A DNA stretch of 64,000 nt from a phage. Numbering within the stretch: position 1 is the first letter of the stretch; the number at the start of each line of letters is the position of its first letter. Location of the stretch: sequence record PZ495249.1, one strand, 5' to 3'. Of this stretch, positions 38,475 to 63,482 are shown in pieces. The notes beneath the pieces were generated by a model. That model was given only the letters and a program-made list of their open reading frames with translations, had not been told where the DNA came from and made no database searches. Both the position numbers and the translations under genes were made by a program.

Positions 38475-38531
38475 GCTGAAACACAACTTATCATTCAAGG
38501 GGCTTCTGCCCCTTTCTGCATTGGAGAAAAT

Positions 38532-38933
38532 ATGTCTGACGCTCTAAAAACTCAGGTCGATGGCGACCATTACAAGAAACAAAAAATCCAACCTATTGAA
38601 TTAGCTTACCTTATCGGTGCAACACCATGCTTCACTAAGCTGGCGAAGTACATGACACGAGACAAGGGTGATCGTAATATTAACCTTGACAAGGCTATTC
38701 ACTGTGTTAATATCGAGAAAGAAATTCATGAAACCGCTATGTACCACATTCTTGATAGCTACCCTTTACTGGCTAACCCTGCAAGGTTAGGTCAGGCTGA
38801 AATGCTCATCAACATCTTCTCAGAAGATCCGTTTGTGCAAGCCGCGCTGAAAGCAATGATCAGACAGGACTACGACGAGGCAATTGCCGAAGTTGAAGCC
38901 CTGAAAAGGTTATTAAATGTCAAGCACGAGTAA
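38532..38933 (+). CDS. hypothetical protein, 133 aa
   Basis: N-terminal VDGDHYKKQKIQPIELAYLIG segment; family not assigned. Confidence 0.4.
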   Translation: MSDALKTQVDGDHYKKQKIQPIELAYLIGATPCFTKLAKYMTRDKGDRNINLDKAIHCVNIEKEIHETAMYHILDSYPLLANPARLGQAEMLINIFSEDPFVQAALKAMIRQDYDEAIAEVEALKRLLNVKHE

Positions 38934-39120
38934 GCAATATGGAGAAGGTGAGGTTTATAAGATCTACAATCGCAAAGGCGACAAGCTCTTACAAACTATC
39001 ACCATGCCGGAGAGTATGTGCAAAGCAGGTCTGGATAGAATGTTGTTCTTCAAGTACAACATTGCCCCAGGCGATTATGTAGCTAAGAAGGTGAGTAACA
39101 TTGGCGAACAAGGAACCTAA
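38917..39120 (+). CDS. hypothetical protein, 67 aa
   Basis: Short ORF overlapping its neighbours. Confidence 0.3.
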   Translation: MSSTSKQYGEGEVYKIYNRKGDKLLQTITMPESMCKAGLDRMLFFKYNIAPGDYVAKKVSNIGEQGT

Positions 39121-39679
39121 GATTGTATGGGGTGAGGGAACCCCCTGGAGAACCCAAGCAGAATTCTACACGTATTTGCGAGGTTGTCTAAGGAGAGCAT
39201 GGATTCGACACCCCAACAAGATTAAACGTATTAACGCACTACGCTACCAAGTTGATCGACTTGACAAAGACGGTAACGTAATGCGAGATAAGAAAACAGG
39301 TAAACCAAAGAAAATCTGGAACTGCAAGTGTGAACTCTGTGGACACACAGGCGGAATGAAAGATTTCCAAGTAGACCACATCCACGCCGCAGGTGCGCTA
39401 ACCTGCTATGAAGACCTTCCAGGTTTTGCTCTAAGACTCCTCTACGTAAACGAAGAAGACCTACGAGTAGTTTGCAAGAAATGCAACTCAATCCTCGCAT
39501 ATGCTGATAAGCACAACTTATCGTTCGTAGAAGCGTCGGCGGAGAAAGAAGCCATTGAAATCTGTCGTACTAAGAAGGACAAACAGTGGCTTGAGAAACG
39601 TGGAGTGAAGCCTGAAAGTACAATAATTAAGCGAAGAAAACAGATAGTGAAAATACTTCTTGATCTTGCGCAACAATAA
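39101..39679 (+). CDS. HNH endonuclease, 192 aa
   Basis: CELCGHTGGMKDFQVDHIHAAG ... CKKCN (Cys pairs flanking catalytic His). Confidence 0.5.
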   Translation: MANKEPKIVWGEGTPWRTQAEFYTYLRGCLRRAWIRHPNKIKRINALRYQVDRLDKDGNVMRDKKTGKPKKIWNCKCELCGHTGGMKDFQVDHIHAAGALTCYEDLPGFALRLLYVNEEDLRVVCKKCNSILAYADKHNLSFVEASAEKEAIEICRTKKDKQWLEKRGVKPESTIIKRRKQIVKILLDLAQQ

Positions 39680-39719
39680 CGTAATATAAGCCCCATCAGA
39701 CGGGGCTTTGAGGAGAACC

Positions 39720-40319
39720 ATGAGAATCGTCTGTGACTGTGATTTAGTAATAGCTCCGGCTGATGTTCCCTGGCTTGCCTGGTTGAATGCTGTGAGTGGT
39801 GACAATGTTGTATTGCCAGCAACTGGCAAAGATGCACATTACGACCTATCTGCATACTTCCCAGACTTCGAGAAGAGGTTTGGTATCGACCCGCATTCCT
39901 TCTGGGATAATCAGCATCTGTACGACACAATGGGTACAGTGCCAGGCAGCGTGAATACTCTTAACTATCTTGGTAAGGCTGGAGATACCCTTCTCATCGC
40001 AAGCCACACCAAAGGTGGACATTTTAGCTCCAAGTACCGCTATATAAAACGCAACCTCCCTGAATTTGATTTCGGACGAGGAACAGGTAATGGCTTCTTT
40101 GCGACGAAGGAGAAATACCTACTCCCCTGCGATATAGCAATTGATGATCGGGCAGAGAATCTCGTCTTATTCCCAGATCATGTAGTGAAGGTGTACTTCA
40201 ACACCATATATCAAGATCCATTCTTGGAAGAATTAAAAACCATGCCGAACGTACTGATAACTTCCATCGAAGATCCTTGGAAGGATGTATTCAATGCGGT
40301 TGACATTTATCATAAATAG
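39720..40319 (+). CDS. HAD-superfamily phosphatase (putative 5'-deoxyribonucleotidase), 199 aa
   Basis: N-terminal MRIVCDCDLV (DxD nucleophile motif); SD GAGGAGAACC-ATG. Confidence 0.4.
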   Translation: MRIVCDCDLVIAPADVPWLAWLNAVSGDNVVLPATGKDAHYDLSAYFPDFEKRFGIDPHSFWDNQHLYDTMGTVPGSVNTLNYLGKAGDTLLIASHTKGGHFSSKYRYIKRNLPEFDFGRGTGNGFFATKEKYLLPCDIAIDDRAENLVLFPDHVVKVYFNTIYQDPFLEELKTMPNVLITSIEDPWKDVFNAVDIYHK

Positions 40320-40327
40320 GAGGAGAC

Positions 40328-61431: not shown

Positions 61432-62108
61432 TGTCGAAAGTAGTATGGTGTTTATTTGATGGTAGTGGTATTATGGGATTACCCTGGGCTGAGGCTGGAT
61501 ACCAAGTTTATTGCTTTAATGCCAGTAGCGGAGATCACGGAGAGTATGAAATTAAAGTGGATCACCCTTTGATCACTTACGTCGATACTTGGATTGACTC
61601 TACCTTTGATCCAACAGGTATGGGTGACAACGGCGGTGATGCTCCTACGTTTATTATCGGCTTCCCGCCTTGTACAATGCTCGCTGGTAGTGGAGAGCAA
61701 CACGAGCGTACTGCGGAAGAGATCGAAGAGGCGCTTCAAAACGTCCGTATCGTCGAAACTTTGGGTAATAAGTATGGTGTGCCGTGGATGATTGAGAATC
61801 CAGTGGGTAAATTGTCCACACTCTGGCGTAAGCCGGACTACTACTTCGATCCGTATGAGTTTGGTGGTTATCTCCGAAAAGAGGAAGGTAGTTATCACCC
61901 TAAAATGCCAGTACAGGATGCCTATACGAAGAAAACCTGCCTATGGGTAGGCAATGGTTTCGTATTCCCTGATAAAAAACCCGTAGAACATATTGGTTTC
62001 TTCTGGGGATGGCGTTATCTCGGTGGTAAGAGTAATCGAACAAAACAGTTGCGATCTCTCACCCCTCGTGGGTTTGCTCGCGCAGTGTTTAAGGCTAATA
62101 GGAGGTAG
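61431..62108 (+). CDS. short DNA cytosine-C5 methyltransferase-like protein, 225 aa
   Basis: Motif-I-like FDGSGIMG, motif-IV-like GFPPCTMLAGSG (Pro-Cys), motif-VI-like MIENPVGKL; too short to hold a normal target-recognition domain. Confidence 0.4.
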   Translation: MSKVVWCLFDGSGIMGLPWAEAGYQVYCFNASSGDHGEYEIKVDHPLITYVDTWIDSTFDPTGMGDNGGDAPTFIIGFPPCTMLAGSGEQHERTAEEIEEALQNVRIVETLGNKYGVPWMIENPVGKLSTLWRKPDYYFDPYEFGGYLRKEEGSYHPKMPVQDAYTKKTCLWVGNGFVFPDKKPVEHIGFFWGWRYLGGKSNRTKQLRSLTPRGFARAVFKANRR

Positions 62109-62109
62109 T

Positions 62110-62223
62110 ATGTGGAGAGGGTGGCAGGGCGCACTGATTCTTGTGTGCATACCAATTAGTTTTCTTGGTTGGGCTTTTTGGGAATTTGTATTCTGGTTGT
62201 TCCACAACTTACATTGGGGGTGA
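62110..62223 (+). CDS. small Trp-rich membrane peptide, 37 aa
   Basis: SD TAGGAGGTAGT-ATG; MWRGWQGALILVCIPISFLGWAFWEFVFWLFHNLHWG. Confidence 0.3.
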   Translation: MWRGWQGALILVCIPISFLGWAFWEFVFWLFHNLHWG

Positions 62224-62225
62224 AA

Positions 62226-62867
62226 ATGACAAAGAAACTGGTGGCGTATCAAGTTGATCGGGACGATTACGAAGGTAGTGTAATTGTTTTTGACTCTCAC
62301 GGCTTGGCTGCTCGCCGCCGTGGGGCTTCGATGTTAGACCTTGGCGGAGAAGATGAGTATTGCCAGGTAAGACGTGTAAAAGATTTCGATCAATATGCGG
62401 AAAAGGGCTACGTTCCTTATAAGGCTTTGCTGGAACATGGTTGGTGGTTACACTCGGCTCATGATGGTCGAAAAATCACAGAGGACTACTGCTACGATGA
62501 ATACGAGGACGAGGAGGTAGAAACACCTGAACTTGTCTTCTTCCAGAACGAGCAGGGTGTGTGGTTTGATTGGGATGAAATGGAACGCCATGCCTATTCT
62601 ATTAACGAAGCAAAAGATCGCTTTGATTGGTGGATTGAAACGGTTATGCGTTGCTACCCACATCTTACCTTCACTAAGTTTGAAGGTGGACCTGGACGTA
62701 TTACTCACACAGCCAACTTCACCTTCCCTGGTGCTCAGTATGGCGGTGGTCACATCCGTTGGGATTGGGAGGAAGGTGTAACACCAGATCCTAAAGAACA
62801 TTTCTCCAGTTGGGTTGCCACAGGAGATAAAGAAGCATTTGACAAGTACCTCGAAAGTGTGGTATAG
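62226..62867 (+). CDS. hypothetical protein, 213 aa
   Basis: ATG with SD GGGGGTGAAA; Trp/acidic-rich. Confidence 0.4.
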   Translation: MTKKLVAYQVDRDDYEGSVIVFDSHGLAARRRGASMLDLGGEDEYCQVRRVKDFDQYAEKGYVPYKALLEHGWWLHSAHDGRKITEDYCYDEYEDEEVETPELVFFQNEQGVWFDWDEMERHAYSINEAKDRFDWWIETVMRCYPHLTFTKFEGGPGRITHTANFTFPGAQYGGGHIRWDWEEGVTPDPKEHFSSWVATGDKEAFDKYLESVV

Positions 62868-62894
62868 TGCTTGAAATTAATCTAAGCCCCTTGA

Positions 62895-63482
62895 TTGGGG
62901 CTTTATTCGTATGGAGGATTTATGGGATTTGATGACATGTTGGACTATGAGGGAAACTGCGTTAAAGAAGCTCTGGCCTTACCAGAACTGGAGATCACCA
63001 TCACAGTGTATGACACTTATTCCGATTGTGAAACTTGCGGTGCATACTGGAGCAGAGTTCTTGAAGTAGATGGAGACTTAGGGGAATTCCAGAGTGGTGA
63101 TCGTGCAAGTTGTTTGGGTAGTAATGATGACGGTACTTATCACGAAGTTGCTCAATGGATTAACGCGCGACTTGAAGAGCATGGTCGTCCTGTTCCTGTA
63201 CTATTGACACCGGATGCAATGCTGCAAGCTGATAACGAGTATTACGCTCAAGCGGCTTTGGTGAACTATGATTATAATCATCCTTCGCTTGAGGCATTAG
63301 GACATAAAGCAGGTTGTCTGTCAGATGCTTTTGATGCATACTATACGTTAGACAGTCTGAAACGATTGTATTCTGCATTCGGTGTGACCATTTATGATGA
63401 TCACAAGGCAGATGAGGTTTACGATGCCAGCGATTGGGGCGATTATGAAGATAATGAGGAAGAAGAATGCCAAGACGACTGA
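62895..63482 (+). CDS. hypothetical acidic protein, 195 aa
   Basis: ORF with SD (TATGGAGGATTT); C-terminal DNEEEECQDD. Confidence 0.4.
   Translation: MGLYSYGGFMGFDDMLDYEGNCVKEALALPELEITITVYDTYSDCETCGAYWSRVLEVDGDLGEFQSGDRASCLGSNDDGTYHEVAQWINARLEEHGRPVPVLLTPDAMLQADNEYYAQAALVNYDYNHPSLEALGHKAGCLSDAFDAYYTLDSLKRLYSAFGVTIYDDHKADEVYDASDWGDYEDNEEEECQDD

Follow-up and report, generated by a model that had tools for sequence, protein, structure and literature searches.

Recurrent GC-rich hairpins between the plus-strand genes of an rV5-like phage resemble leaky intrinsic terminators

The plus-strand genes in the phage sequence record PZ495249.1, of which we analyzed a stretch of 64,000 nucleotides (nt; the window), are separated at six junctions by short GC-rich hairpins, which we name by their first positions as 38497, 39688, 44651, 50778, 52789 and 62884 (Table 1). 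Judging by their sequences and surroundings, these hairpins are most likely sense-strand stem-loops of the Rho-independent type, which would act as leaky terminators and would also cap the 3′ ends of mRNAs. The phage is a myovirus of the Stephanstirmvirinae (rV5-like) with a genome of ~145 kb, and its genes lie on the minus strand up to ~28 kb of the window (including 23 tRNA genes) and on the plus strand beyond. An initial annotation had described all six hairpins, at positions that differ by no more than 2 nt from those found here, as near-identical elements of the form GCCCC-loop-GGGGC. This form is found in three of them (39688, 52789 and 62884), whereas the other three have the opposite order, GGGGC-loop-GCCCC. 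The near identity extends to the arms of 5–7 nt, but not to the loops and flanks, which differ.

In all six cases the hairpin is located after a stop codon and before the next Shine-Dalgarno (SD) sequence, just as the initial annotation had it (gene boundaries are those of a simple gene model). The SD sequences are strong, start 1–12 nt from the stem, and none of them is sequestered. The stems consist of 5–7 perfect pairs, five of which are G-C pairs in every hairpin, the loops are 4–7 nt long, and the free energies range from -10.8 to -14.6 kcal/mol. In terms of stem and loop, all six hairpins are thus built like intrinsic terminators. When the surrounding 38–49 nt were folded, the SD was mostly unpaired, and these folds contained no longer alternative pairing.

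A comparison of motif counts with expectation shows how unusual this set is. The pattern GCCCC-N(3-12)-GGGGC has three matches in the window versus 0.10 expected, and none of 100 shuffled sequences reached three. The reverse pattern, GGGGC-N(3-12)-GCCCC, has four matches versus 0.07 expected. In the plus-strand block, 10 of the 15 strong GC hairpins are intergenic, with intergenic DNA amounting to 6.2% of the bases (binomial p = 2e-9). The dinucleotide-shuffle z-scores of the single hairpins were only -0.7 to -2.7 for the six, because the shuffles retain the GG and CC dinucleotides of such short sequences. Hence, the case against chance is made by the motif counts, the intergenic enrichment and the conservation of the hairpins. 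The fourth match of the GGGGC type, GGGGCG GTGCT CGCCCC at 57381-57397, is located within a coding region, where 57362-57898 begins, and lacks a T-tract on the plus strand.

An Rfam scan of the whole window at gathering thresholds returned tRNAs only and no known RNA family over the hairpins. Similarly, we found no repeat family of at least 16 nt that would join the six hairpins, as only the 7-nt arms are common to them. Their flanks have functional features alone in common, namely a stop codon or AT-rich sequence upstream and T's followed by an SD downstream.

Table 1. Hairpins and promoters of the plus strand discussed in the text. Sequences are given as 5′ arm, loop and 3′ arm; the score d is approximate, including its zero point.
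Feature	Position (strand)	Sequence	Sequence that follows	Gene context	Free energy (kcal/mol)	d	Remarks
Hairpin 38497	38497..38514 (+)	AAGGGGC TTCT GCCCCTT	TCTGCATT	22 nt past stop of unannotated cassette gene 38046-38474; 8 nt ahead of SD of 38532-38933	-14.0 (44-nt context)	4.8	predicted marginal terminator
Hairpin 39688	39688..39708 (+)	AAGCCCC ATCAGAC GGGGCTT	TGAGGAG (SD), directly	8 nt past stop of HNH/EndoVII-like gene 39101-39679	-12.1	-22	three T's only (UUU before SD); weakest predicted terminator of the six
Hairpin 44651	44651..44668 (+)	AAGGGGC GAAA GCCCCTT	TATTTTTCT	4 nt past stop of nrdA (42397-44646)	-14.6	28.2	strong T-tract TTTATTTTTCT; z = -2.7
Hairpin 50778	50778..50793 (+)	AGGGGC GTAA GCCCCT, G.U-extended base	TATTCAAGGAG	3 nt past stop of lysozyme gene 50274-50774; ahead of phoH 50812-51564	-13.9	-1.6	short T-tract
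Hairpin 52789	52789..52802 (+)	GCCCC TTCG GGGGC	TTTTAAGGAGG	6 nt past stop of HslV/proteasome-like gene 52093-52782	-10.8	5.6	C(UUCG)G tetraloop
Hairpin 62884	62884..62903 (+)	AAGCCCC TTGATT GGGGCTT	TATTCGTATGGAGG	16 nt past stop of hypothetical gene 62226-62867	-13.2	4.6	
Promoter	62839..62868 (+)	TTGACA-18-TGgTATAGT		overlaps stop of 62226-62867			sigma-70-type, extended -10, 11/12 consensus
Canonical terminator T37947	37947..37966 (+)	AAACCCGC TTCG GCGGGTTT	TTTATTG			34.4	
Promoter	37982-38011 (+)	TTGACA-18-TAGAAT		after terminator T37947			
Canonical terminator T60019	60019..60036 (+)	AACCCGC TTCG GCGGGTT	TTTTATTG			30.5	z = -3.2
Promoter	60053-60081 (+)	TTGACA-17-TAAACT		after terminator T60019			

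We then assigned a hairpin-plus-tail score d of the d'Aubenton-Carafa type to both strands of the entire window. As a formula from the literature was combined with modern energy parameters, the d values, including the zero point, are approximate. On either strand of the 64 kb, d exceeded zero at 12 sites, all of which are intergenic and 11 of which are in sense orientation. Two plus-strand hairpins outside the six, T37947 and T60019, score higher than any of these and have the appearance of canonical terminators. Hairpin 44651 comes close to them, 52789, 38497 and 62884 score slightly above zero, and 50778 and 39688 score below it. The tails give the same picture. The U-tract of ~7–9 nt expected of a terminator is present at 44651, marginal at 38497, 52789 and 62884, and lacking at 50778 and 39688. 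The latter two are below the threshold because their T-tracts run into the ribosome-binding site. The remark of the initial annotation that the T-tracts are usually weak is therefore correct for five of the six hairpins. The exception is 44651, which by its sequence is a canonical intrinsic terminator.

The same annotation had interpreted the hairpins as attenuators or as processing and stability elements rather than as strong terminators. Given that most T-tracts are weak, a role as attenuators or stability elements is reasonable, and at the lysozyme/PhoH and HslV-like junctions the hairpin is indeed kept across genera, whereas the T-tract is not. A class apart from terminators, however, is difficult to uphold. 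The d of 44651 is 28 compared to 30–34 of the canonical terminators, the T-tract of 38497 is stronger in the orthologs from relatives, and phage PsgM04F has a GGGGC-TTCG-GCCCC hairpin with a T6 tract at the position of a canonical terminator. The six hairpins are only the GGGGC/GCCCC subset of a set of ~15 terminator-like intergenic hairpins found on both strands.

The conservation of the hairpins was analyzed at orthologous junctions recovered from seven annotated relatives and fifteen IMG/VR loci. The nearest records to the window are those of Klebsiella phages FKP3 (the nearest), KP13-26, KP2025 and phi1_175008, which display 81–86% identity in patches. Coliphages of the genera Justusliebigvirus and Phapecoctavirus are more distant, and no record in the phage collection is above ~86% identity to the window. 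Three IMG/VR contigs, L008-L010 (uncultivated virus genomes 3300048913_000035, 3300048927_000035 and 3300048914_000034), encode a PhoH identical to that of the window and contain identical hairpins. Judged by these sequences, they appear to belong to the same phage species, which would therefore have been present in those samples.

The position of the hairpin is kept across Justusliebigvirus, Phapecoctavirus and the metagenomic relatives. At the 44651 junction, six of the eight distinct sequences have the GGGGC/GCCCC core and two muut-type sequences have GGGGG/CCCCC, with loops that read GAAA, GGAA, TTCG, TTCA or CTTTGT. A good T-tract is kept here in most relatives, the muut-type reaching only d = -9. 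The stem AAGGGGC at the 50778 junction is invariant in six distinct sequences with GTAA, GCAA, GAAA, TTCG or TTT loops, and its tail is short in most relatives (d of -11 to -1.6), with the exception of muut (d = 15). Compensatory change is seen at the 52789 junction. Its five core pairs are paired in 100% of 11 distinct sequences, and five of the seven pair positions show double-sided changes, the ortholog stems also reading TGCCC/GGGCA, CCCCC/GGGGG, GCCTC/GAGGC and GCCGA/TCGGC. These changes were counted in a register anchored on the loop; the MAFFT alignment had moved several rows by one column.

In FKP3, phi1_175008 and muut, the 38497 ortholog reads CAGGGGC TTCG/GAAA GCCCCTTTCTTATTT, with a stronger T-tract and d = 17–26. 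Hairpin 62884 and its TTTATTTGT tail are kept in FKP3, muut and KP13-26, and the same junction in PsgM04F and ASO2A contains GCCTCC..GGGGGC, with one U.G pair, plus TTTTCTTTT. Hairpin 39688 is kept with a 6-nt loop in the group of Klebsiella phages and is absent in PsgM04F and ASO2A. The gene upstream of it has a weak match to Endonuclease_7, and the gene downstream has a match to NT5C.

Taken as a whole, the sequence features argue for selection on the hairpin as an RNA of the sense strand. Of the nine 4-nt loops in the window, eight conform to GNRA or UNCG in the sense reading and none does in the antisense reading (binomial p = 2e-10). A tetraloop closed by a C-G pair is found in three of the six hairpins (GAAA, GTAA and TTCG). 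The loop of 38497 is TTCT, with TTCG or GAAA in its orthologs, and the loops of 39688 and 62884 are 6–7 nt long and are not tetraloops. The stems contain G.U pairs, which would be C.A mismatches on the opposite strand, and the T-tracts track the direction of genes in both halves of the window. Combined with the compensatory changes, with the finding that only one of 11 insertions or deletions (indels) is bounded by hairpins (see below), and with the sharing of no more than 7-nt arms, these features point to RNA selection and not to a mobile repeat or a general recombination module.

The common GGGGC/GCCCC core is probably due to convergence on the most stable short stem and not to recent copying. 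Among the 32 all-GC stems of 5 bp, GGGGC and GCCCC both belong to the top stability tier, and in both the loop is closed by a C-G pair and the U's are preceded by a basal G-C pair. We rejected the idea that the family arose by recent duplication or from a mobile element, as the flanks are unrelated and orthologs of every site exist in other genera.

From these properties we infer a mechanism that involves termination of graded efficiency, masking by ribosomes and protection of 3′ ends. The long plus-strand early/middle block is presumably transcribed by the host RNA polymerase. At each hairpin, the G/C stem and the U-rich stretch that follows would allow a fast-folding hairpin in the RNA exit channel to release part of the transcripts. 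One determinant of the released fraction would be the length of the U-tract. Hairpin 44651 has a long tract, those of 38497, 52789 and 62884 are of intermediate length, and at 39688 and 50778 the SD cuts the tract off. Another determinant would be how often the 5′ arm is masked by a ribosome that has stopped 3–8 nt upstream. A terminator located a few bp past a stop codon in E. coli is almost fully repressed by the ribosome, and its activity becomes maximal only beyond ~30 bp (PMC4824070). As four of the six hairpins start 3–8 nt past the stop codon, frequent read-through would be expected due to such masking, and with the next SD only 1–12 nt away the U-tract is cut short. Read-through would lead to expression of the next gene, and an RNA with its end at the hairpin, either by termination or by exonuclease trimming, would carry a very stable 3′ cap. 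At 50778, 52789 and 39688, the main function under selection may be to protect the upstream RNA from 3′ exonucleases. The net outcome would be a stepwise tuning of mRNA amounts along the operon.

Several observations weigh against this interpretation. Hairpins 39688 and 50778 are below the terminator score threshold and three more (38497, 52789 and 62884) are marginal, on a scale whose zero point is itself approximate. In most relatives, the 50778 and 52789 junctions have a weak or variable T-tract next to a preserved hairpin, which fits a role that is independent of termination. The stability gained with GGGGC or GCCCC is only ~0.7–1.6 kcal/mol, and hence the use of this core by six of the eight strongest terminator-type hairpins of the plus strand is not fully explained. 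A literature search yielded no transcriptome of Stephanstirmvirinae, Phapecoctavirus or phAPEC8. Finally, hairpin 62884 is located just downstream of a conserved promoter, which is awkward for a simple terminator. Both hexamers of this promoter are kept in seven of seven relatives, though the neighbouring codon positions vary, and the hairpin starts ~9 nt downstream of the predicted transcription start. The promoter-hairpin pair at 62839-62903 might act as an attenuator close to the promoter or as a 5′ stem-loop. Further pairs, with the hairpin directly after the promoter, are found at 41629-41688 and 35555-35620. We regard it as unlikely that the hairpins with weak tails (50778, 52789 and 39688) and the promoter-proximal 62884 are dedicated RNA punctuation and not terminators. 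If they were, they would represent intercistronic stability or processing signals, or an attenuator with which a phage or host factor times the downstream genes.

A possible, though clearly less probable, explanation is that the hairpins with weak tails (39688, 50778 and 52789, and possibly further ones) never terminate transcription and serve purely as intercistronic stability or processing barriers. PNPase or RNase II would be blocked by the hairpin after an endonucleolytic cut in the AU-rich spacer, and the half-lives of the mRNA segments upstream and downstream would differ as a result. This explanation overlaps in part with the leaky-terminator interpretation and does not exclude it. Such barriers would agree well with the preservation of a hairpin and an extra-stable tetraloop across genera at 50778 and 52789, where the T-tract is short or variable, with the presence of only UUU before the SD at 39688, with the location of four hairpins 3–8 nt past the stop codon, where the E. 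coli ribosome represses termination (PMC4824070), and with the omission of the 50778 ortholog from the terminators annotated in ASO2A. They agree less well with the good T-tracts at 44651 and in the orthologs of 38497 and 62884, or with the continuous grading of this hairpin type into canonical terminators. Furthermore, a strong GC stem can cause partial termination even if it is followed by only three or four U's. Cleavage of the hairpins by RNase III or another double-strand-specific enzyme, as in T7 early mRNA, has their intercistronic position as its sole support. RNase III substrates contain ~20 bp (about two helical turns) of mostly continuous duplex. Stems of 5–7 bp with loops of 4–7 nt are far too short for that and the local folds offer no longer pairing, so this explanation is highly improbable and was rejected on stem length.

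The hairpins might also function at the level of DNA, as short homologies for the gain and loss of gene cassettes, similar to the promoter early stem-loop (PeSL) cassettes of T4-like phages (PMC2839356, PMC4122927), which have been described as composite terminator/promoter motifs that mediate indels (PMC4122927). The resemblance is best at T37947 and T60019, which together with their promoters constitute a repeated 45-nt composite unit, one copy of which bounds a cassette indel. This cassette (37972-38498) consists of a terminator, a promoter and gene 38046-38474. FKP3, KP13-26, KP2025, phi1_175008 and muut lack it, whereas PsgM04F has a homolog. Its layout is moron-like, and both hairpins that bound it, T37947 and 38497, align to a single hairpin of FKP3. 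Its gene encodes a protein of 142 amino acids that has no Pfam match. In addition, gene content downstream of 62884 varies between relatives. However, in a comparison with FKP3 only, just one of the 11 indels of at least 60 nt (37972..38498) is bounded by hairpins, two are near a hairpin and eight are without one. Most indels are found at tight gene junctions that have no hairpin, and indels are tolerated mainly between genes anyway. Unlike PeSL, the six hairpins have no more than their 7-nt arms in common, and a promoter adjoins only one of them, 62884, where it is upstream of the hairpin. The tetraloop bias of the sense strand, the G.U pairs and the compensatory changes also indicate selection on RNA. 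A recombination role for the hairpins is thus doubtful, and PeSL-like mediation of indels was rejected as their general role. A purely translational role, in which a hairpin upstream of the SD keeps the ribosome-binding site unpaired or uncouples the downstream gene, strikes us as similarly hard to credit. The short distance from each hairpin to a strong SD that is not sequestered and is mostly unpaired in the folds speaks in its favor, but many tight junctions in the same block have a strong SD and no hairpin. Moreover, such a role does not call for a T-rich tail, yet this tail is kept at several of the sites and is oriented with transcription.

As leaky terminators, the hairpins belong to an ordinary and already recognized kind of element, and records of relatives already list orthologs among their predicted terminators. 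The ASO2A record (MZ726793; locus L007 in our set) lists as rho-independent terminators the orthologs of 44651 (21134-21159), 52789 (29676-29701), 62884 (38407-38439) and T60019 (35641-35668), as well as that of T37947; the ortholog of 50778 is without such an annotation. The ASO2A terminators are TransTermHP and WebGeSTer predictions (PMC10612097), and 20 terminators were predicted in rV5 (PMC3606486). Similar to intrinsic terminators of enterobacteria and their phages, the six hairpins combine a GC stem of 5–7 bp and a short loop, often a tetraloop, with A-rich 5′ and T-rich 3′ flanks, and they are located after genes in sense orientation. They differ from typical intrinsic terminators in that five of the six U-tracts are short or interrupted, with an SD within 1–12 nt, and in that four of the six hairpins are 3–8 nt past a stop codon, which is why they are expected to be leaky.

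The closest parallel with mapped transcripts is phiKZ, in which 61 terminator regions at mapped transcript 3′ ends share a single motif, a GC hairpin with a short TTAT after it (PMC10914365). In six Pseudomonas phages, ONT-cappable-seq (Oxford Nanopore Technologies) identified 42 termination sites in 5′ untranslated regions just past promoters (PMC10914365). The window resembles phiKZ in having many near-identical short GC hairpins in one genome, each with a short T-rich element after it, and hairpin 62884 is likewise promoter-proximal. However, the lineage and the motif are different, and phiKZ has its own RNA polymerases and mapped 3′ ends, compared to sequence analysis alone here. Intercistronic hairpins with C(UUCG)G and other tetraloops were reportedly found in T4 by Tuerk and colleagues in 1988. 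The hairpins described here likewise place UNCG or GNRA loops closed by a C-G pair between genes: 52789, T37947 and T60019 have C(UUCG)G, and 44651 and 50778 have C(GNRA)G. T4 is nevertheless an unrelated phage, and the link is a statistical one drawn from sequence. The repetitive extragenic palindromes (REP) and bacterial interspersed mosaic elements (BIME) of E. coli are also intergenic palindromes able to shield the upstream mRNA from 3′ exonucleases. A REP is an imperfect palindrome that measures ~35 nt, exists in many dispersed copies and is conserved in sequence past the stem. In contrast, the phage hairpins share only arms of 5–7 nt, and each site is orthologously conserved and not dispersed.

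The hairpins mark likely transcript boundaries and expression steps in the early/middle operon of a Klebsiella/Escherichia-type lineage of therapeutic phages. For engineering, they would offer a natural graded series of short terminators with the same stem but differing tails and stop distances. No new mechanism is indicated by these findings, and mapping in other phages has revealed comparable recurrent hairpin terminators.

The wider set of hairpins contains further elements of this kind. The two copies of the terminator-promoter repeat, 37944-37988 and 60015-60059, are 45 nt long and 84% identical (AACCCGC TTCG GCGGGTTTTTTATTG, 8 nt, TTGACAC). The T60019 hairpin is invariant in the relatives in which the junction was recovered. 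At the position equivalent to T37947, PsgM04F contains AAAGGGGC TTCG GCCCCTTTTTT, which is of the GGGGC-TTCG-GCCCC type, followed by the T6 tract and then a promoter. Since a hairpin of this type occupies the position of an ACCCGC terminator, the two types of hairpin would seem to be functionally interchangeable. On the minus strand, hairpins 2648-2663, 5429-5442, 5956-5973, 9954-9974, 14740-14759 and 18323-18336 are in sense orientation after genes and have their T-tracts on the minus strand, and several of them combine a UNCG or GNRA loop with a strong T-tract. Hairpin 2648 is followed by a TTGACA promoter.

A few other features of the window were noted in the course of this analysis. A near-consensus promoter (TTGACA-18-TATACT, 11/12) is present within the lysozyme gene at 50637-50666, ~110 nt upstream of hairpin 50778 and phoH. 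A long GC-rich hairpin, GGGCTGGCTTGCCCC...GGGCGAGCCTGG, is found at 34283-34318 in a 97-nt gap between genes. It is without an obvious T-tract, and the fold of the whole gap has a free energy of -27.9 kcal/mol. The cluster of 23 tRNA genes occupies positions 18450-23838 of the minus strand, and one of the tRNAs, at 22066-22140, has an amber-reading CTA anticodon and was labeled Pyl by ARAGORN.

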